Positions 30,722 to 43,521 of a stretch of DNA of 64,000 nt are shown piece by piece (the first letter of the stretch is position 1; each line of letters begins with the position of its first letter). The notes under the pieces are model-generated. The model did no database searches, was not told where the DNA came from, and worked only from the letters and a program-made list of their open reading frames with translations. The stretch lies in assembly GCF_003018235.1 (NCBI RefSeq), contig NZ_CP027437.1. The stretch is one strand, 5' to 3'. The position numbers and the translations under genes were made by a program. The DNA comes from Escherichia coli (GTDB lineage Bacteria; Pseudomonadota; Gammaproteobacteria; Enterobacterales; Enterobacteriaceae).

Positions 30722-30941
30722 TTTCACCTTTATCCCGCCCCTTAGACAGAATCTTATAATCTGAACCCACAATAGCGTTTGTACCGGAGCTGGTCCGTTG
30801 CAAAATGCTCACCGGGAGAATTCAGGTAATCCCCCTTTCACACTTTGTACATATCACAGCCAAAGGACAGACCAGATTGAAGTGGTAAAACCGATCGTGC
30901 ACACTACGCAGTCTCACAACTAACAAGAGGTTATTATCCTG

Positions 30942-31346
30942 ATGGATCAGGTTGTTGTTTTTCAAAAGATGTTTGAGCAAGTGAGAAAAGAGCAAAACTT
31001 CTCCTGGTTTTATTCAGAATTAAAACATCACCGTATTGCACATTACATTTATTATCTGGCTACGGATAACATCAGAATTATTACTCACGATGACACGGTT
31101 TTGTTATTAAGAGGAACCAGGAACCTGTTAAAAGTTAGTACGACCAAGAACCCTGCTAAAATAAAAGAGGCCGCATTGCTTCATATTTGCGGAAAATCAA
31201 CATTTCGGGAATACTGTTCAACACTGGCAGACGCGGGCGTTTTCCGGTGGGTTACTGATGTTAATCATAACAAACGCAGTTACTACGCCATTGATAATAC
31301 GCTTTTATATATTGAAGATGTAGAAAATAATAAACCATTAATCTAG
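30942..31346 (+). CDS. ycgX: Protein YcgX
   Basis: 134-aa ORF; synteny. Confidence 0.85.
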   Translation: MDQVVVFQKMFEQVRKEQNFSWFYSELKHHRIAHYIYYLATDNIRIITHDDTVLLLRGTRNLLKVSTTKNPAKIKEAALLHICGKSTFREYCSTLADAGVFRWVTDVNHNKRSYYAIDNTLLYIEDVENNKPLI

Positions 31347-31553
31347 CTAAAGTTGGATGCTTAAAAAATGCTTCATAATTCAGTAAGGCATTAGCATAAT
31401 GGAAATAAAAGTGCAGAGACTATTCATATGGATGAGTAATACTATCTTTTTATTGCCACCCATAAATAATCACCAGATCAATACTATCAACTTGATATTT
31501 GAAATGTGATCACTTGACTTTTGATACGTTATTTTATAGCGGTTAACATATTT

Positions 31554-31606
31554 ATAAAAAACAACGGGCGTGCCATACGCCCGTTTCAATACTTAACGCA
31601 CATGTG
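31554..31606. repeat. Orphan copy of the icd 3'-flanking terminator region
   Basis: About 90% identical over ~53 bp to 32414..32466; includes hairpin aacgggcg-tgccata-cgcccgtt. Confidence 0.7.
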
Positions 31607-32043
31607 TTTTGGTTTAGTCATCATCCGGTTATATGTATTTTAGCCAGGAATGGGTTAAACCATTCCTATATAACTAAAAAATTGAAACCTTATTCTCATG
31701 TCATGCTTATATTCGTCATTATCGTTATATAAAAAGGCCAACCATAATGTTTAGCAAATTGGCACAAAGTAGTATAAAGGCTATGTTTTAATTACAGGAT
31801 GTTCAGTCATTTGAATGTATAACATTTTAGCTAAACAAATCTAAAACGAAGTGAATAATTTATTGTTTTCACTAAATCTCATTTTGTTTAACATCCATTG
31901 AGATTCCTTGCTTTAAATTTTGTTTTATATAAGCAATCGTTTTAATTAATTTATTTTTTTGAAGGGTAATATACTCATATGCAATATAAAGAAATGAACA
32001 TCCAAATGAACTATATTAAATACCGTGGGATAAGACATAACAA

Positions 32044-32367
32044 ATGAAGTGGGTAGTAATTGACACGGTAATTCAACCTACATGCGGCATATCTTTTTCA
32101 GCCATATGGGGTGATATGAAAATGATCATCTGGTATCAATCTACTATATTTCTCCCTCCTGGAAGTATATTTACACCGGTTAAGCCTGGTATTATCCTTA
32201 AGGATAAAGAATACCCTATTACTATTTATAACATCACACCATTCAACAAGAATTTATGGAGTTTACTCAAAAGCAGTCAAGAGTGTCCTCCAGGAGAAAG
32301 CGAAATAACAAATAAATGTTTGCATAAGAGTTGTATTATAAAAATATGCCCATATGGGCTCAAATAA
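32044..32367 (+). CDS. iraM: Anti-adaptor protein IraM (stabilises RpoS)
   Basis: 107-aa [26 protein letters not shown]... matching recalled IraM; long AT-rich upstream region. Confidence 0.75.
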
Positions 32368-32413
32368 TGGGTTTTATATAAATATGCTCGATATGCTATT
32401 AATAATATCCACA

Positions 32414-32466
32414 TAAATAAAACAACGGGCGTGTTATACGCCCGTTTCAATATTTAACACATGTAG
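32414..32466 (-). terminator. icd intrinsic terminator
   Basis: Hairpin aacgggcg-tgttata-cgcccgtt followed on the minus strand by a T-run immediately after the icd stop. Confidence 0.7.
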
Positions 32467-32469
32467 AGA

Positions 32470-33720
32470 TTACATGTTCTTGATGATCGCATCACCAAAC
32501 TCGCTGCATTTCAGCAGTTTAGCGCCTTCCATCAGACGTTCGAAGTCATAGGTTACAGTCTTGGCGTTGATTGCGCCTTCCATACCTTTAACAATCAGGT
32601 CTGCGGCTTCAGTCCAGCCCATATGGCGCAGCATCATCTCAGCGGAGAGAATAATAGAGCCTGGGTTTACTTTGTCCTGACCGGCATATTTCGGCGCAGT
32701 ACCGTGGGTGGCTTCAAACAGGGCGCATTCGTCACCGATGTTTGCGCCTGGGGCGATACCGATACCGCCGACCTGTGCAGCCAGAGCGTCAGAAATGTAG
32801 TCACCGTTCAGGTTCATACAGGCGATAACATCATATTCAGCCGGACGCAGCAGGATCTGTTGCAGGAATGCATCAGCAATCACATCTTTAATGACGATCT
32901 CTTTGCCGGTATTCGGGTTTTTAACTTTCATCCACGGGCCGCCGTCGATCAGTTCACCGCCAAACTCTTCACGCGCCAGCTGGTAGCCCCAGTCTTTAAA
33001 CGCGCCTTCGGTGAACTTCATGATGTTGCCTTTGTGCACCAGGGTCACAGAGTCACGATCGTTAGCAATTGCGTATTCGATCGCTGCACGAACCAGACGT
33101 TTGGTGCCTTCTTCCGAACACGGCTTAATACCGATACCGCAATGTTCCGGGAAGCGAATTTTCTTCACGCCCATCTCTTCACGCAGGAATTTAATCACTT
33201 TCTCGGCGTCGGCAGAGTCAGCTTTCCATTCGATACCCGCATAAATGTCTTCCGAGTTTTCACGGAAGATAACCATATCGGTCAGTTCAGGGTGTTTAAC
33301 CGGGCTTGGAGTGCCCTGATAGTAACGTACCGGACGCAGGCAGATGTAGAGATCCAGTTCCTGACGCAGGGCAACGTTCAGAGAGCGAATACCGCCACCT
33401 ACTGGAGTGGTCAGCGGGCCTTTAATGGCAACGCGATATTCACGAATCAGATCAAGGGTTTCAGCAGGCAGCCAGACATCCTGACCATAAACCTGTGTGG
33501 ATTTTTCACCGGTGTAAATTTCCATCCAGGAGATTTTACGCTCGCCTTTATAGGCTTTCTCGACTGCAGCGTCGACCACTTTCAGCATGGCTGGGGTTAC
33601 ATCTACACCGATTCCATCACCTTCAATGTAAGGGATAATCGGATTTTCAGGAACGTTGAGTTTGCCGTTTTGCAGGGTGATCTTCTTGCCTTGTGCCGGA
33701 ACAACTACTTTACTTTCCAT
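32470..33720 (-). CDS. icd: NADP-dependent isocitrate dehydrogenase
   Basis: 416-aa [41 protein letters not shown]... matching recalled Icd; intact 3' end. Confidence 0.97.
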
Positions 33721-33891
33721 TCACCTCTCCTTCGAGCGCTACTGGTTTGCTCGTCTGCCACCACGTTGCATATGCGTTTGCGTCCTGCGATACGGATGCT
33801 TTAGAGCAATTTTTTGTTAATGATTTGTAATTGGCTTGTCAATACTACCCTATTGTTTGCCGTCATGAAAGATGCGCGTTATTAGGCTATA

Positions 33892-33942
33892 ATGCGGCAA
33901 TTCATAATCTCTGAAAATACCATGCAAAAAACTTCTTTTAGA
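33892..33942 (+). pseudogene. rluE: Displaced native 5' fragment of rluE (first 17 codons, MRQFIISENTMQKTSFR)
   Basis: Matches recalled RluE N-terminus, then diverges after the 11-bp repeat and stops at 34036..34038; TATAAT just upstream. Confidence 0.6.
33932..33942. repeat. Left copy of the 11-bp direct repeat CTTCTTTTAGA flanking the rluE insertion
   Basis: Identical 11-mer at 35429..35439, in the same reading frame (S-F-R) in both copies. Confidence 0.7.
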
Positions 33943-34180
33943 CCAAAGACAGTATTTTCCCGACATTCAAATAAAGTATTAAATATCAATTATTTACACC
34001 AGATTTTAAGCAATAAAAAAACCACCAGAGATAACTAACAGGGTGCTATTTGGTCAAAATTTGACATTACTCGATTCAGCGACTATCTCACTTTGAGCAC
34101 TATTGGGAAAATTATCAAAAGTCATGGTTGAAGCGACAAGCAACGAGTAAATTATGGCATCCCCCCTTTTTGAGGTTCAC

Positions 34181-34267
34181 ATGAAACGCTTTGCACTGAT
34201 AGCTGTGAAACTCGTTGCCTTTACTGGTTCTGCATCTGCTGCAACCGAAGAAATCAACTTCAAGTAA
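34181..34267 (+). CDS. 28-aa micro-ORF with signal-peptide-like sequence (MKRFALIAVKLVAFTGSASA/ATEEINFK)
   Basis: ATG preceded by gagg; hydrophobic core plus A-x-A cleavage motif; absent from the ORF track (below length cutoff). Confidence 0.35.
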   Translation: MKRFALIAVKLVAFTGSASAATEEINFK

Positions 34268-34300
34268 CAGAAACACTATATAACAATGGAGTGTTGACAA

Positions 34301-34588
34301 ATGGATACTACCGAAGAACGCAATGGAACATATTTCTACAGAGGACACCCGAACCTGTCCAAAATAGAACTACTCAACGTCATATTCCTTGAAGAATTCT
34401 GTAAGGAATTGGGGATTGATTCGGTATCAGGTGCAGCAATCTTATCTGGTCAACCGTGGCTGGGTACAAGAGCGAAGCCGCAAGGGGCAACCCTGGGAAC
34501 AAGTGTTGTCTCAAAGTATGCGCGTATACTGATGAGAGATGCACGCATGCCTTTTGGTATTTGTGGGTGTAAGGATGCAGAAATCTAA
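34301..34588 (+). CDS. Hypothetical protein (95 aa)
   Basis: ORF in the rluE-inserted cassette; no recognisable domain. Confidence 0.4.
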   Translation: MDTTEERNGTYFYRGHPNLSKIELLNVIFLEEFCKELGIDSVSGAAILSGQPWLGTRAKPQGATLGTSVVSKYARILMRDARMPFGICGCKDAEI

Positions 34589-34736
34589 TAAGCTTGCTGC
34601 AATTATCGCTCGTTGGGTCCCGTGGATTGGTTGGGCTTCACTGTCGATGAGTCTTTACAGGGTTTCGACTCGTACCCAGGAAAAATACAATCTGATTGCC
34701 AAACCTCAAGACCGTATTAAGTGGACTTCCTTCTAA
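34575..34736 (+). CDS. Small hydrophobic protein (53 aa, Trp-rich putative membrane segment)
   Basis: ATG at 34575 with aagga RBS; AAIIARWVPWIGWASLSMSL hydrophobic stretch; stop overlaps the start of the next ORF (TAATG). Confidence 0.4.
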   Translation: MQKSNKLAAIIARWVPWIGWASLSMSLYRVSTRTQEKYNLIAKPQDRIKWTSF

Positions 34737-35071
34737 TGGCGACAACAATCACAGACGAAGTTTTAGCACTGTTCCGTGATGAGATTCCAGGTTATCAGGA
34801 TGACCACGGGAAGGAAATTCCGTTAGAACTGGACTCTGATTTGTTCGACTATCCACGAGATGATTTAGAGGACGCTATACGGAAATACAAAGAGAGGTTT
34901 GGGATTAACCTGGATAATCTGGACTGGTCTTTGTACCTTCCATGGGAGTCTGCACCATTGCTTCAACGATGGTTCAAGCTCAAGCGGGAAGAGGTAGAAA
35001 CAACACGTTTACCGTTAACTGTACGGATGTTTGCAGAATCAGCAGAAGCGGGAAAATGGCTGTATCAGTAG
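34736..35071 (+). CDS. Hypothetical acidic cytoplasmic protein (111 aa)
   Basis: ORF 34721..35071 with ATG at 34736 translationally coupled to the upstream small ORF; resembles small enterobacterial proteins of unknown function (family not verified). Confidence 0.55.
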   Translation: MATTITDEVLALFRDEIPGYQDDHGKEIPLELDSDLFDYPRDDLEDAIRKYKERFGINLDNLDWSLYLPWESAPLLQRWFKLKREEVETTRLPLTVRMFAESAEAGKWLYQ

Positions 35072-35403
35072 AATAAAAAAGAAGGCTGCGATGCCCCTCT
35101 TATTACTGCTGATGATAGTAGTGGTAAAGCATCATCCTAAACTTGAACAGTGAAGTGCTGTCACCCATCAGTAATACAGAAACACTATTTTTCATACCAG
35201 TATTTATTCAATTCATCAATGTAAAATGTGTTCATTGGGCCATATTTATCACCATGCAGCCACACAACCGCTGCTCACTAACCCAGGTATTGATGAAACC
35301 GCGCTGAAGAGCCTGAACCCTGAACCTCTAACGAGTACCTTAAAAGTCCAATGCAATCCGACACTGTGCTACCCTCTGCGTATAGCTCTATTTGGAATTT
35401 ACC

Positions 35404-36042
35404 ATGAAATACTTTAGCGATTCTAAATCTTCTTTTAGAAAAAAACAGGTTAGTCGACTAAACTCGCAACACTCCACTAAGCGTAAACCTGAAAATCAGC
35501 CCACGCGCGTGATCCTGTTCAATAAACCCTACGATGTTCTTCCGCAGTTCACCGATGAAGCCGGACGCAAAACATTAAAAGAATTCATCCCGGTTCAGGG
35601 CGTTTATGCAGCAGGTCGTCTTGACCGCGATAGCGAAGGGTTACTGGTGCTGACCAATAACGGCGCGTTGCAGGCGCGTTTAACCCAGCCGGGTAAACGC
35701 ACCGGAAAAATCTATTATGTGCAGGTGGAAGGTATTCCCACACAAGACGCACTTGAAGCCTTGCGCAATGGCGTAACCTTAAATGATGGCCCTACCCTGC
35801 CCGCAGGCGTAGAGCTGGTTGACGAACCCGCGTGGTTATGGCCGCGGAATCCACCAATTCGTGAACGCAAAAGTATTCCCACCAGCTGGCTGAAGATCAC
35901 CTTATATGAAGGACGTAATCGCCAGGTGCGCCGCATGACCGCCCATGTTGGTTTCCCCACGCTGCGACTGATTCGCTATGCGATGGGTGATTACTCTTTG
36001 GATAATCTTGCCAACGGCGAATGGCGAGAAGCGACAGATTAA
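35404..36042 (+). CDS. rluE: 23S rRNA pseudouridine synthase RluE with cassette-supplied replacement N-terminus
   Basis: ORF 35392..36042; ATG at 35404 gives [49 protein letters not shown]...; the body matches recalled RluE. Confidence 0.88.
35429..35439. repeat. Right copy of the 11-bp direct repeat CTTCTTTTAGA
   Basis: Identical to 33932..33942. Confidence 0.7.
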
Positions 36043-36051
36043 GGACGCAAA

Positions 36052-37673
<1,622 letters not shown>

Positions 37674-37708
37674 TTATTATCTTTACTTAAAACAAGGAAG
37701 CAGTGAAC

Positions 37709-38350
37709 GTGGCAAAGAATTACTATGACATCACCCTCGCCCTGGCCGGTATTTGTCAGTCGGCACGCCTGGTGCAACAACTCGCTCACCAGGGGCATTG
37801 TGATGCCGATGCGCTACACGTCTCACTCAACAGTATTATTGATATGAACCCCAGCTCGACGCTGGCGGTTTTTGGCGGCAGCGAAGCCAACCTGCGCGTC
37901 GGGCTGGAAACCTTGCTCGGCGTGCTCAATGCCAGCAGTCGCCAGGGCTTAAACGCTGAGTTAACCCGCTACACACTCAGCCTGATGGTGCTTGAGCGCA
38001 AACTCTCCTCAGCGAAAGGTGCGCTCGACACTCTGGGCAACCGGATCAACGGCCTGCAACGCCAGCTCGAACACTTCGATTTACAGTCCGAAACGCTGAT
38101 GAGCGCGATGGCTGCTATCTATGTTGATGTGATTAGCCCGCTTGGCCCGCGCATTCAGGTAACCGGTTCCCCTGCTGTACTGCAAAGCCCACAAGTGCAG
38201 GCGAAAGTTCGCGCAACCCTGCTGGCAGGCATTCGCGCCGCCGTGCTCTGGCACCAGGTTGGCGGCGGACGTCTGCAACTGATGTTTTCTCGTAATCGCC
38301 TGACCACTCAGGCAAAACAAATTCTTGCTCATTTAACCCCGGAGTTGTGA
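37709..38350 (+). CDS. hflD: High-frequency-lysogenisation protein HflD
   Basis: ORF 37703..38350; GTG at 37709 gives [21 protein letters not shown]... Confidence 0.9.
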
Positions 38351-39724
<1,374 letters not shown>

Positions 39725-39738
39725 GCCTCAAAACAGTG

Positions 39739-39765
39739 CCGGATGGCGATGCTGTCCGGCCTGCT
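39739..39765. repeat. REP-like palindromic element / terminator after purB
   Basis: gccggatggcgatgctgtccggcctgc imperfect palindrome. Confidence 0.4.
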
Positions 39766-39815
39766 TATTAAGATTATCCACTTTTTCTTTTTTCACTTTA
39801 CCTCCCCTCCCCGCT

Positions 39816-39832
39816 GGTTTATTTAATGTTTA
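39816..39832 (+). promoter_or_regulatory. PhoP box (direct repeat GGTTTA-N5-TGTTTA) of the phoPQ promoter
   Basis: ggtttatttaatgttta about 60 bp upstream of the phoP start. Confidence 0.7.
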
Positions 39833-39892
39833 CCCCCATAACCACATAATCGCGTTACACTATTTTAATAATTAAGACAGGGAGAAATAAAA

Positions 39893-40564
39893 ATGCGCGT
39901 ACTGGTTGTTGAAGACAATGCGTTGTTACGTCACCACCTTAAAGTTCAGATTCAGGATGCTGGTCATCAGGTCGATGATGCAGAAGATGCCAAAGAAGCC
40001 GATTATTATCTCAATGAACATTTACCGGATATTGCGATTGTCGATCTGGGATTGCCAGACGAGGACGGTCTGTCACTGATTCGCCGCTGGCGTAGCAATG
40101 ATGTTTCACTGCCGATTCTGGTATTAACCGCCCGTGAAAGCTGGCAGGACAAAGTCGAAGTATTAAGTGCCGGTGCTGATGATTACGTGACTAAACCATT
40201 TCATATTGAAGAGGTGATGGCGCGAATGCAGGCATTAATGCGGCGTAATAGCGGTCTGGCTTCACAGGTCATTTCGCTACCCCCGTTTCAGGTTGATCTC
40301 TCCCGCCGTGAATTATCTATTAATGACGAAGTGATCAAACTGACCGCGTTCGAATACACCATCATGGAAACGTTGATACGCAATAATGGCAAAGTGGTCA
40401 GCAAAGATTCGTTAATGCTACAACTCTACCCGGATGCGGAGCTGCGGGAAAGTCATACCATAGATGTACTGATGGGACGTCTGCGCAAAAAAATACAGGC
40501 ACAATATCCGCAAGAAGTGATTACCACCGTTCGCGGCCAGGGCTATCTGTTCGAATTGCGCTGA
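39893..40564 (+). CDS. phoP: Response regulator PhoP
   Basis: 223-aa OmpR-family [31 protein letters not shown]... Confidence 0.95.
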
Positions 40565-42024
40565 TGAAAAAATTACTGCGTCTTTTTTTCCCGCTCTCGC
40601 TGCGGGTACGTTTTCTGTTAGCAACGGCAGCAGTAGTATTGGTGCTTTCGCTTGCCTACGGAATGGTTGCGCTGATCGGTTATAGCGTCAGTTTCGATAA
40701 AACCACGTTTCGGCTGTTACGTGGCGAGAGCAATCTGTTCTATACCCTTGCGAAGTGGGAAAACAATAAGTTGCATGTCGAGTTACCCGAAAATATCGAC
40801 AAGCAAAGCCCCACTATGACGCTAATTTATGATGAGAACGGGCAGCTTTTATGGGCGCAACGTGACGTGCCCTGGCTGATGAAGATGATCCAGCCTGACT
40901 GGCTGAAATCGAATGGTTTTCATGAAATTGAAGCGGATGTTAACGATACCAGCCTCTTGCTGAGTGGAGATCATTCGATACAGCAACAGTTGCAGGAAGT
41001 GCGGGAAGATGATGACGACGCGGAGATGACCCACTCGGTGGCGGTAAACGTCTACCCGGCAACATCGCGGATGCCAAAGTTGACCATTGTGGTGGTGGAT
41101 ACCATTCCGGTGGAGCTAAAAAGTTCCTATATGGTCTGGAGCTGGTTTATCTATGTGCTCTCAGCCAATCTGCTGTTAGTGATCCCGCTGCTGTGGGTCG
41201 CCGCCTGGTGGAGTTTACGCCCCATCGAAGCCCTGGCAAAAGAAGTCCGCGAACTGGAAGAACATAACCGCGAATTGCTCAATCCAGCCACAACGCGAGA
41301 ACTGACCAGTCTGGTACGAAACCTGAACCGATTGTTAAAAAGTGAACGCGAACGTTACGACAAATACCGTACGACGCTCACCGACCTGACCCATAGTCTG
41401 AAAACGCCACTGGCGGTGCTGCAAAGTACGCTGCGTTCTCTGCGTAGTGAAAAGATGAGCGTCAGTGATGCTGAACCGGTAATGCTGGAGCAAATCAGCC
41501 GCATTTCACAGCAAATTGGCTACTACCTGCATCGTGCCAGTATGCGCGGCGGGACATTGCTCAGCCGCGAGCTGCATCCGGTCGCCCCACTGCTGGACAA
41601 TCTCACCTCGGCGCTGAACAAAGTGTATCAACGCAAAGGGGTCAATATCTCTCTCGATATTTCGCCAGAGATCAGCTTTGTCGGTGAGCAGAACGATTTT
41701 GTCGAGGTGATGGGCAACGTGCTGGATAATGCCTGTAAATATTGCCTCGAGTTTGTCGAAATATCTGCAAGGCAAACCGACGAGCATCTCTATATTGTGG
41801 TCGAGGATGATGGCCCCGGTATTCCATTAAGCAAGCGAGAGGTCATTTTCGACCGTGGTCAACGGGTTGATACTTTACGCCCTGGGCAAGGTGTAGGGCT
41901 GGCGGTAGCCCGCGAAATCACCGAGCAATATGAGGGTAAAATCGTCGCCGGAGAGAGCATGCTGGGCGGTGCGCGGATGGAGGTGATTTTTGGTCGCCAG
42001 CATTCTGCGCCGAAAGATGAATAA
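40564..42024 (+). CDS. phoQ: Sensor histidine kinase PhoQ
   Basis: 486-aa ORF with two TM segments, H-box and ATPase domain; overlaps the phoP stop. Confidence 0.95.
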
Positions 42025-42110
42025 ATATGTCCTTTTATCATTAAACACAACCAACCAATTGATTTAATTAAATAAATCTCACTACAGAAAGTGCCAAAAA
42101 TCGCAAATTG

Positions 42111-42131
42111 ACTACACCATTAACTACACCG
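42111..42131. repeat. 21-bp direct repeat ACTACACCATTAACTACACCG (candidate att core, left copy)
   Basis: Perfect copy at 53485..53505; imperfect similarity continues for ~40 bp to the right of both copies. Confidence 0.7.
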
Positions 42132-42286
42132 TTCGGTGCACTGTATGAAACAACGTGGAACAAATAGACACAAGAAATATATGGGCGGGTAATTTATCTA
42201 TGTGAAAGCGTGCCGACTAATAGGGCGTTAATGTCGATATGGGGATCCCCATATCGGGAACCATACCGGAATTTTTGCCAGGTTAA

Positions 42287-42409
42287 ATGTTAACCGCTGC
42301 CCTGTTAACATTTTTACCAAAAAGGTAGTTAACATTTTTTGCACGCAACCATATGAATCATAAAGACAAAATCAACAACAACGCTTCATCAGGCAGTTAA
42401 CATGTTAAC
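42287..42409. promoter_or_regulatory. Cluster of GTTAACAT / ATGTTAAC half-sites, including the 14-bp palindrome GTTAACATGTTAAC (candidate iterons/operators or packaging site)
   Basis: Motif at 42287..42294, 42304..42311, 42328..42335 and 42396..42409 in a gene-free ~0.8-kb terminal region. Confidence 0.4.
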
Positions 42410-42833
42410 TACTACAAAACGGTAATTTTTTCTCTGCGTGAGAGTGGGCGCGGTGTCCGAATTGTTCGTTGTTCGTGGCTAACCGCTCCCCCCCCTATAC
42501 CGGATTTTTTTCCGGTTAATCTTTAATCAGGCTGGTGGGGGTTACATACCCTTGATCACCGTAATGATGATTCAGGTATGCACCTTTCCCCCCGATGGGG
42601 TAAAAGCATCAACCGTAACGGTAATATCTGCCTTGATGGTCTGCGTGGTCATTATGACCATTCAGCCAATGACCTTAATCAGAATTTTTCGCTAAAAAAT
42701 GATGTTGGCCACGTCGTCCGGAAAGCACAAAATCCCGTCGATTTTTAATTAACGGTTAAACCGCCTTTTTGTCACGGTGTGTCACTGGTTGCCACTCACC
42801 GTCACGATGTCCGCTCGCCTGGCTGTAAATTAA

Positions 42834-42852
42834 ACTACGAAAATTTCGTAGT
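42834..42852. promoter_or_regulatory. 19-bp perfect palindrome ACTACGAAAATTTCGTAGT (followed by GGGACTACAAGTCCC palindrome)
   Basis: Read directly; lies upstream of the left-end hypothetical gene. Confidence 0.4.
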
Positions 42853-42925
42853 TGTGAGGGACTACAAGTCCCGCGCAAATTTCCCCCGGTCCCCTCAAAT
42901 TGAGGTTGCCGGAAATATCAACCAG

Positions 42926-43207
42926 TTACCGCCGTAACCGCTCCAGCTTCTTCCAGTGGTACGTAATTTTCTCTTTCTCCCGGTACATCTCAACGCGGCG
43001 ATTGTAGGCCAGCATTTCCAGAACGCGGATCCGTATGTCGCGCATATCTACATCGTTAAGCTGGATACCATCACGGCGCATCACCTCAGCAACCACACGC
43101 GCATAATTTTCAGCGGTCACGCTGTCCGGCTGCGTTGCCTGTTCGTCAGCCTGCTGGCTGATTCCTGCAACGCGGTGGATTAATCGCAGTATTTCGGCTT
43201 CTGTCAT
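42926..43207 (-). CDS. Hypothetical protein (93 aa)
   Basis: ORF 42926..43219; probable start ATG 43207 (MTEAEILRLIHRVAG...) with G-rich SD. Confidence 0.5.
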   Translation of the reverse strand: MTEAEILRLIHRVAGISQQADEQATQPDSVTAENYARVVAEVMRRDGIQLNDVDMRDIRIRVLEMLAYNRRVEMYREKEKITYHWKKLERLRR

Positions 43208-43241
43208 TGTGCCCCCCATCGTTCTAATCGTCTGGTGTCGT

Positions 43242-43295
43242 CGGGTCCTTCCTGGAATTATGGCCCGTTACGGGGCGGCGACCTCGCGGTTTTTC
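43242..43295. repeat. Inverted repeat, left arm (terminator-like hairpin plus T-run)
   Basis: Reverse complement of 43887..43940; the inner 32 bp are identical. Confidence 0.75.
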
Positions 43296-43521
43296 ACTAT
43301 TTATGAGATTTTTTAGGGGGTGGTTGTTGTTTAATTGTTTGTCATATCTATTTGATAACTAAGTAAAAATAGAGAGCAATACAACAACCTGATAGTGTTT
43401 TTTGATGCTACAAATAAAAAAAATGCTAATTGAATCAAATAGTTTTACAAAAATACGTGGTTGTTGTATTGCGTATTTGATGGCGTAACAGAAAGTGATT
43501 TTGAACTTTGCTGTTCTGTGA

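Follow-up and report, generated by a model that had tools for sequence, protein, structure and literature searches.

What separates icd from rluE in some Escherichia coli genomes, how did it get there, and can it still move? The question is raised by a stretch of 64,000 nucleotides of E. coli DNA (NCBI RefSeq assembly GCF_003018235.1, contig NZ_CP027437.1), hereafter called the window. In the window, icd lies on the minus strand (32470-33720), rluE, nudJ and mnmA follow on the plus strand, and about 1.5 kb of non-native DNA (33943-35428) stands between icd and the start of rluE. We propose that this segment is probably the decayed, immobile remnant of an island that once integrated, most probably in a site-specific manner, in the first codons of rluE, a gene for rRNA modification.

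The 11-mer CTTCTTTTAGA is present twice, at 33932-33942 and at 35429-35439. Past the left copy the native rluE frame departs and soon stops, and the right copy is in frame with an ATG at 35404, from which RluE continues to 36042. We aligned the locus with three empty-site references (K-12 TG1, O157:H7 TR01 and HS-02), and both divergence points fell at the 11-mer, as the initial annotation of this DNA had proposed from the letters of the window. To the left of the 11-mer, the DNA is 100% E. coli-native up to the junction in the same three genomes. The insertion had first been taken to begin at 33892, a position that is the annotated ATG of rluE and not the junction; the junction itself does exist, at the left 11-mer. 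A repeat search extended the flanking pair to an imperfect repeat in which 17 of 20 nt are identical, with a spacing of 1,497 nt. Direct repeats coincident with the insertion boundaries are expected of attL and attR in an integrative island.

The segment was found in 373 of 5,426 complete E. coli genomes, with one copy in each and always between icd and rluE. The remaining genomes (about 5,050) have an uninterrupted icd-rluE junction with an intact target. The insertion into the 5' coding end of rluE is therefore real and polymorphic among E. coli genomes, the segment being far from near-universal. No recombinase was found among the open reading frames (ORFs) of the insert, again in line with what had been noted from the sequence.

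The insert leaves a chimeric but intact rluE, whose product scores well above the cut-off of the NCBIfam RluE equivalog (469.5 against 284 bits). The proposal that the inserted DNA brings a substitute start for its host gene is thus borne out, as the ATG at 35404 is in frame and yields a full-scoring RluE. The native promoter-like site, 100% identical to the empty-site genomes, is now separated from the rluE body by the insert.

Which codons were hit depends on where RluE begins. The annotated ATG at 33892 overlaps the -10 element TATAAT (33888-33893) of the only good promoter match. Furthermore, several Citrobacter species have a stop codon between this upstream ATG and the equivalent of the ATG at 33922, and the NCBIfam RluE profile begins at MQK, matching the latter. 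On these three grounds we consider ATG 33922 the conserved start; it is probably the true start of RluE, and the 217-amino-acid (aa) E. coli annotation would be 10 codons too long. Counted from ATG 33922, the junction falls at codons 5-7, and the earlier placement at codons 15-17 hangs on a start that is probably mis-annotated.

A second island at the same position in another genus points to what the segment may once have been. In Enterobacter cloacae M-7, 13.3 kb lie between icd and rluE (locus L088, 3904-17432; JAALCJ010000004.1). The native rluE start is stranded beside icd here as well, and the island begins right after TTTTAGA, at the same nucleotide as in E. coli. The left ~310 nt of the M-7 island are homologous to positions 33943-34255 of the window, with 66.9% identity over 308 columns, and both left ends have a palindrome with TTGACA, the string TTATCAAAAGTCATGG and the beginning of a secreted protein of 143 aa. 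The substitute start of M-7, MSNTRKYHNNSKTSFRK, and the TCTAAAnCTTCTTTTAGA motif are similar to those of the E. coli island. The M-7 island carries TCTAAAACTTCTTTTAGA, a perfect 7-4-7 inverted repeat, the E. coli counterpart of which is TCTAAATCTTCTTTTAGA. The cargo, on the other hand, differs: M-7 has a 1,075-aa YadA-type adhesin, a Bor-like lipoprotein, RHH- and Aca2-like regulators, and a fragment with a match to the C-terminal portion of a phage primase. Ends that are conserved while the cargo varies, with insertion at one and the same nucleotide in both genera, are the signature of an integrative element family.

Three substitutions in the stranded rluE start of M-7 suggest that the insertion is old. 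Relatives of the island's first gene form a single cluster, and the island as a whole gave no DNA match against 50,697 phage records. A 54-aa ORF with a DRxSR-like motif by the right junction of M-7 was considered as a serine-recombinase remnant and discarded, as it found no support in Pfam, PHROG or PADLOC.

We then asked which state of the locus came first. A RluE scan with one genome per species gave 80 enterobacterial loci. For 78 of these, icd either adjoins rluE or the available flank shows no insert; the two loci with an insert are those of Escherichia sp. E1V33 and E. cloacae M-7. E1V33 carries the same cassette with identical junctions, and the divergence of its cassette (about 2.3%) resembles that of the left flank. 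The K-12-type uninterrupted allele is common to E. albertii and two other Escherichia loci, and resembles that of all other Enterobacteriaceae. Because of this shared allele and of the 78 loci without an insert, the empty icd-rluE site is, on these comparisons, to be read as the ancestral state. In a search for further variants of the island, a metagenome scan with the left-end motif returned eight contigs, all with the same E. coli cassette, and IMG/VR returned none.

Foreign DNA also extends beyond the right repeat. From 35440 to 35481 we counted 15 mismatches to K-12, compared with about 2% in the rest of rluE, and non-native DNA thus reaches about 35481, 41 nt past the repeat. Only two genomes of about 4,990 empty sites (HS-02 and O157:H7 TR01) have this block without the cassette. 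The block alters the RFSS motif, which all 80 enterobacterial RluE loci keep, and a milder cluster of differences private to Enterobacter M-7 falls within the same 40 nt. One possibility is that the block survives from the rluE allele of the host where integration first took place and travelled with the cassette through homologous recombination; another is that the substitute 5' region of the ancestral element was longer. Neither origin accounts for everything observed, since the left flank is wholly native as far as the junction.

Can the segment still move? In silico, the predicted sequence of an attP-type or circular junction is absent from the 5,426 E. coli genomes and from IMG/VR, the 373 carrier genomes hold no second copy or alternative location, and the metagenome scan showed the cassette in the same icd-rluE arrangement only. 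With one copy, one locus, no attP junction and a relative in M-7 that has no integrase, the results do not bear out the mobile unit that the word cassette may imply, and the remnant appears immobile today.

Loss and recombination have left traces at the locus. The HS-02 empty site is the exact product of a crossover within the 11-mer, with the 41-nt block. That of O157:H7 TR01 is a hybrid, which keeps the element-derived CC after the 11-mer and lies inside a 3.5-kb tract, from icd to mnmA, that is most closely related to a cassette carrier. These two singleton empty sites look like deletion scars. We had also considered an O157-type empty allele as a common pre-insertion site and dropped the idea, as this allele is a singleton (TR01) inside an imported tract. 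The cassette of the window is itself a mosaic of two cassette types: ten substitutions with respect to the common E. coli type are clustered in the first 130 nt of the insert (33959-34075), where the sequence agrees with that of Escherichia sp. E1V33. A version like that of the window is found in about 15 of 374 genomes.

What does the remnant still carry? The initial annotation counted four small genes of unknown function. We find two genuine genes, one of them a pseudogene here, and a 37-aa remnant. The ORFs 34301-34588 and 34539-34736 of that count are a single gene, split by a 14-bp deletion after 34562, and the ORF 34154-34267 is a signal-peptide stump, whose full-length counterpart is the 143-aa secreted protein of Enterobacter M-7. 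The split gene belongs to the STM2901 family, which is Pfam DUF8209. An intact copy is present in strain LH85-a, with a 149-aa STM2901-family protein and a 111-aa DUF1493 protein, and for the window version of the deletion stretch the best identity among 374 matching RefSeq genomes is 97.1%. An intact DUF8209 allele has the accession WP_000381622.1. The pair is bracketed by a perfect 13-nt direct repeat, ACAGAAACACTAT, for which 0.11 matches are expected in the whole window. The repeat is conserved in E. coli cassettes, one copy having a mismatch in Escherichia sp. E1V33, and its position suggests that the two genes entered the older island as a unit. In this strain the module would be reduced to an orphan DUF1493 gene. 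As for the non-coding parts of the insert, no structured RNA was matched in Rfam at E <= 1, and the spacer 35072-35403 has no similarity to other DUF8209 loci or to the Enterobacter M-7 island. The cargo was also considered as an anti-phage defence system, and it had no PADLOC match.

The relatives of the two genes suggest a function. A search of 1.84 billion representative proteins found 179 DUF8209 relatives, and in many of them the domain forms the C-terminal ~135 residues of a longer protein. In 5 of the 10 longer homologues tested, the RHS repeat-associated core (TIGR03696) is N-terminal to the STM2901_fam domain; a domain at the C-terminus after an Rhs core is the standard architecture of a polymorphic toxin tip. 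DUF1493 is directly downstream of DUF8209 in each of the 11 distinct loci examined, namely the E. coli rluE site, Salmonella next to invH and the pathogenicity island SPI-1, Klebsiella next to mutS, Citrobacter between yajR and cyoE, Cronobacter, Enterobacter hormaechei, two further Enterobacteriaceae, one metagenome contig and two loci outside Enterobacteriaceae. DNA similarity between these loci is confined to the two ORFs. An orphan hcp stands 10-12 nt upstream of DUF8209 in 4 of the 9 enterobacterial loci, and no hcp is found beside DUF8209 at the E. coli rluE locus and four others. The DUF1493 protein is soluble, acidic, carrier-protein-like and helical. Since DUF8209 is fused to Rhs cores, is followed by DUF1493 in every locus examined and in four loci has hcp upstream, we read the pair, from architecture and neighbourhood, as a putative polymorphic toxin with its immunity protein, of the kind associated with Rhs proteins and the type VI secretion system (T6SS). 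Our literature search found no mention of DUF8209 and mentions of DUF1493 only in passing.

Considering all the above results, the following course of events may be proposed. A larger island would have integrated in the first codons of rluE, with the crossover in or at the edge of the 11-mer. Its right end would have supplied a substitute ribosome-binding region and start codon, leaving rluE intact, and the original promoter and first seven codons of the gene would have been stranded next to icd. The recombinase and most of the cargo would have been lost, and what is left over would be the two island ends, the stump of the first island gene and the DUF8209/DUF1493 module, which the 14-bp deletion in this strain would have reduced further, to the immunity gene. 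The remnant would be spread by nothing other than vertical descent and homologous recombination in the icd-rluE region, and would occasionally be lost through recombination across the imperfect 20-nt repeats. We favour a site-specific event because of the conserved ends, the use of the same nucleotide, the imperfect flanking repeats and the replacement gene start borne by the element. The hallmark of a site-specific integrative element, claimed at the outset, thus gains from the M-7 island, which occupies the same nucleotide with other cargo. The mechanism, for its part, is read from anatomy alone: as no recombinase survives, the integration step is one that we infer.

Several points weigh against this scenario. 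In neither island was an integrase or a remnant of one found, including among the called and uncalled ORFs of M-7. The island family counts two members only, and the identity of their left ends (67%) is, by alignment, of the same order as that of core intergenic DNA between the two genera (78%), so that this comparison does not, by itself, separate independent integration from ancient descent with homologous exchange. A crossover inside the 11-mer leaves the linked 41-nt block unexplained. The surrogate promoter that the insert was said to carry did not materialise, as a consensus scan of 35072-35403 found none for the substitute start; by eye we could only point to a weak candidate, CCGACA (35358-35363)-17 nt-TATAGC (35381-35386), and transcription of rluE would come from within the insert. 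Finally, the structure model of the DUF8209 toxin is of low confidence (pLDDT 69) and has no fold match. With these points in mind, we advance only tentatively, as a possibility that we would not yet call probable, the wider proposal that the first codons of rluE are the attachment site (with a TCTAAAnCTTCTTTTAGA core) of an undescribed family of Enterobacteriaceae elements, sampled so far only as relics without a recombinase, one of which keeps an undescribed DUF8209 toxin family with a DUF1493 immunity protein of acyl-carrier-protein-like fold.

Other explanations have to be weighed against a decayed integrative island. The exact 11-nt direct repeat around the insert could be a target-site duplication left by a transposon or an insertion sequence. 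We regard this as extremely improbable: none of the inverted pairs found is a terminal inverted repeat, the ORFs include no transposase, a single copy sits at the same site in all 373 genomes and its ends were not found at other sites, the repeat extends imperfectly beyond 11 nt, and its right copy lies inside a gene-start copy borne by the element, which is not a product of target duplication. Alternatively, the segment may be ancestral to Escherichia, and the empty sites may be a derived state that arose when recombination between the 11-mers deleted it from most lineages. The presence of the cassette in E1V33, which is not E. coli, with a divergence similar to that of the left flank, would agree with this, and deletion across the repeats evidently occurs, as in TR01 and HS-02. 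A deletion would, however, leave the 41-nt block behind; the K-12-type empty allele is without it, and the block is seen in only 2 of about 4,990 empty sites. The sharing of that allele with E. albertii and its resemblance to other genera, the duplicate of the native start stranded on the left and the 78 of 80 species without any insert all point the same way. Ancestral presence is largely refuted already by the K-12-type sequence downstream of the 11-mer, and we hold it to be very unlikely.

The segment might also be a minimal cassette that is still mobile and moved in trans by a recombinase encoded elsewhere, that is, cis-mobilisable. Its att-like repeats and the dyad symmetry at the right junction are intact, and HS-02 has the exact sequence of a precise excision. 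Yet only two alleles of the excision type occur among the empty sites, that of TR01 being an imprecise hybrid in an imported tract; the circular junction and any second location are missing from the genomes searched, and no partner integrase is known. We consider this reading unlikely. A different question is how E. coli came by the segment, which may have been imported ready-made, together with flanking DNA, by homologous recombination from another enterobacterial lineage. Such an import complements a decayed island rather than competing with it, as it concerns the acquisition by E. coli and not the first origin of the island, and the repeats would have been inherited. The strict linkage of the 41-nt block to the cassette, the milder cluster of differences at the same place in M-7, the identical junctions in E1V33, the multi-kb tract of the locus that moved between lineages in TR01 and the mosaic of two types in the window would all agree with it. 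On the other hand, the DNA left of the 11-mer is fully E. coli-native and shows no donor flank, and we found no plausible donor rluE for a block that changes the RFSS motif kept by all 80 loci. We therefore treat import as a serious possibility, without going so far as to call it the likely route. For the origin of the segment itself, the decayed remnant of an integrated island is the reading that we retain.

Features of the icd-rluE insert and of related islets (positions in the window unless a locus is named)
Feature	Position	Strand	Basis or remark
Native rluE promoter-like site, ATGAAA-17 nt-TATAAT	33865-33893	+	Consensus scan, 10/12
Orphaned native rluE 5' end, MQKTSFR	33922-33942	+	Ends in left 11-mer; conserved start, alignments
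Left direct repeat CTTCTTTTAGA, attL-like core	33932-33942	+	Repeat search, empty-site alignments; extended imperfect repeat 33928-33947
Island left end	33943-34266	+	Homologous to left end of the 13.3-kb E. cloacae M-7 island
Palindrome GTCAAAATTTGAC	34053-34065	+	Contains TTGACA; within island left end
Truncated remnant of first island gene	34181-34267	+	Signal peptide only; listed ORF 34154-34267
Left 13-nt perfect direct repeat ACAGAAACACTAT	34267-34279	+	Repeat search
DUF8209/STM2901-family pseudogene, putative polymorphic toxin	34301-34736	+	Each half matches NCBIfam NF045926
DUF1493 gene, 111 aa, intact, putative cognate immunity protein	34736-35071	+	
Right-end spacer, no recognisable gene	35072-35403	+	No Rfam match, no consensus promoter
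Right 13-nt perfect direct repeat ACAGAAACACTAT	35176-35188	+	Repeat search
Substitute rluE start	35404-35439	+	Holds inverted repeat TCTAAAT-CTTC-TTTTAGA (35422-35439) and right 11-mer
Chimeric but intact rluE, 212 aa	35404-36042	+	NCBIfam RluE equivalog
Divergent rluE block, 41 nt	35440-35481	+	Travels with cassette though outside right repeat
hcp-DUF8209-DUF1493 islet, locus L098	5510-6785		
hcp-DUF8209-DUF1493 islet, locus L099	5506-6782		
hcp-DUF8209-DUF1493 islet, locus L102	5507-6809		
hcp-DUF8209-DUF1493 islet, locus L106	4507-5788		

The closest parallel that we know for the arrangement at rluE is offered by the islands and prophages with DAI integrases, which insert in dusA's 5' end and have imperfect flanking repeats (Farrugia et al. 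2015, PMC4482086); the same study notes a non-cognate insertion in the pseudouridine synthase gene rluA. In both cases the target is the 5' end of a housekeeping RNA-modification gene, and the island brings a new 5' end that keeps the gene intact while the original end remains at the far side. The imperfect direct repeats are 21 nt long in dusA islands and 11-20 nt at rluE, and many dusA islands are remnants with variable cargo, as at rluE. The rluE islands differ in their target and, as neither member has an integrase, we make no claim that they belong with the DAI integrases; the 41-nt divergent block outside the repeat is a further difference. Our literature search found no report of rluE as an integration site.

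A comparison closer to the locus is given by e14 and phage 21 at icd, which carry an integrase and a diverged duplicate of the host gene end, so that icd, whose 3' end they replace, is functional after integration. The rluE insert likewise supplies an end of its host gene, here the 5' end. Unlike carriers of e14 or phage 21, the window has no prophage at icd, and the rluE insert is independent of that site. The region downstream of icd (30900-32470) reads ycgX-iraM-ymgL-ymgK, with no e14-type prophage. Its best E. coli match is only 98%, and the lineage of this strain is therefore poorly represented among complete genomes.

A phage origin of the segment was considered as well and rejected. One phage record alone, ON470584.1 ('Escherichia phage vB_EcoM-689R6'), has the cargo at 100% identity, and this record is an overrun prediction of a prophage at icd. 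Its stretch 37404-43299 runs through icd, the cassette, rluE, nudJ, mnmA and hflD, and host genes have therefore been filed as phage genes. This overrun may explain the PHROG entries of the cargo families.

With regard to the cargo, orphan hcp-effector-immunity islets of type VI secretion have been described as the context of Ssp6-like effectors (PMC6889166). The DUF8209/DUF1493 loci resemble them in the order of two small genes, that of a putative effector and then that of a putative immunity protein, which in 4 of the 9 enterobacterial loci stand right after an orphan hcp. As with such islets and with Rhs toxins, they occupy scattered chromosomal sites in some strains only, and DUF8209 is in addition found fused after an Rhs core. 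Three-gene islets of hcp, DUF8209 and DUF1493, with unrelated housekeeping genes on either side, are found in Klebsiella, Citrobacter, Enterobacter hormaechei and another enterobacterium, and no mobility gene was found near these four. The E. coli copy is unlike the hcp islets, as it has no adjacent hcp and its DUF8209 gene is inactivated in the window. Identity with the Ssp6/Sip6 family was examined and set aside, since the immunity proteins are of different types: two transmembrane helices are present in Sip6, whereas the DUF1493 protein is soluble, acidic and helical, resembling a carrier protein. It is by the immunity protein alone that the two families are set apart.

These findings place rluE, most probably, among the few genes that have their 5' end replaced by an integrating island, and offer an example of such an island after the loss of nearly everything but its ends. 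A practical consequence concerns the annotated start of rluE, which is probably wrong. To a specialist, the rluE site and the reading of DUF8209/DUF1493 may be useful rather than surprising. They would give a functional reading, as a putative toxin and its immunity protein linked to Rhs and Hcp, to two domains often met in Salmonella, where they lie next to SPI-1, and in Klebsiella, Citrobacter and E. coli. In the strain studied here, a broken putative toxin gene beside an intact putative immunity gene is the state to be expected if the immunity were kept for defence after the weapon had been lost.

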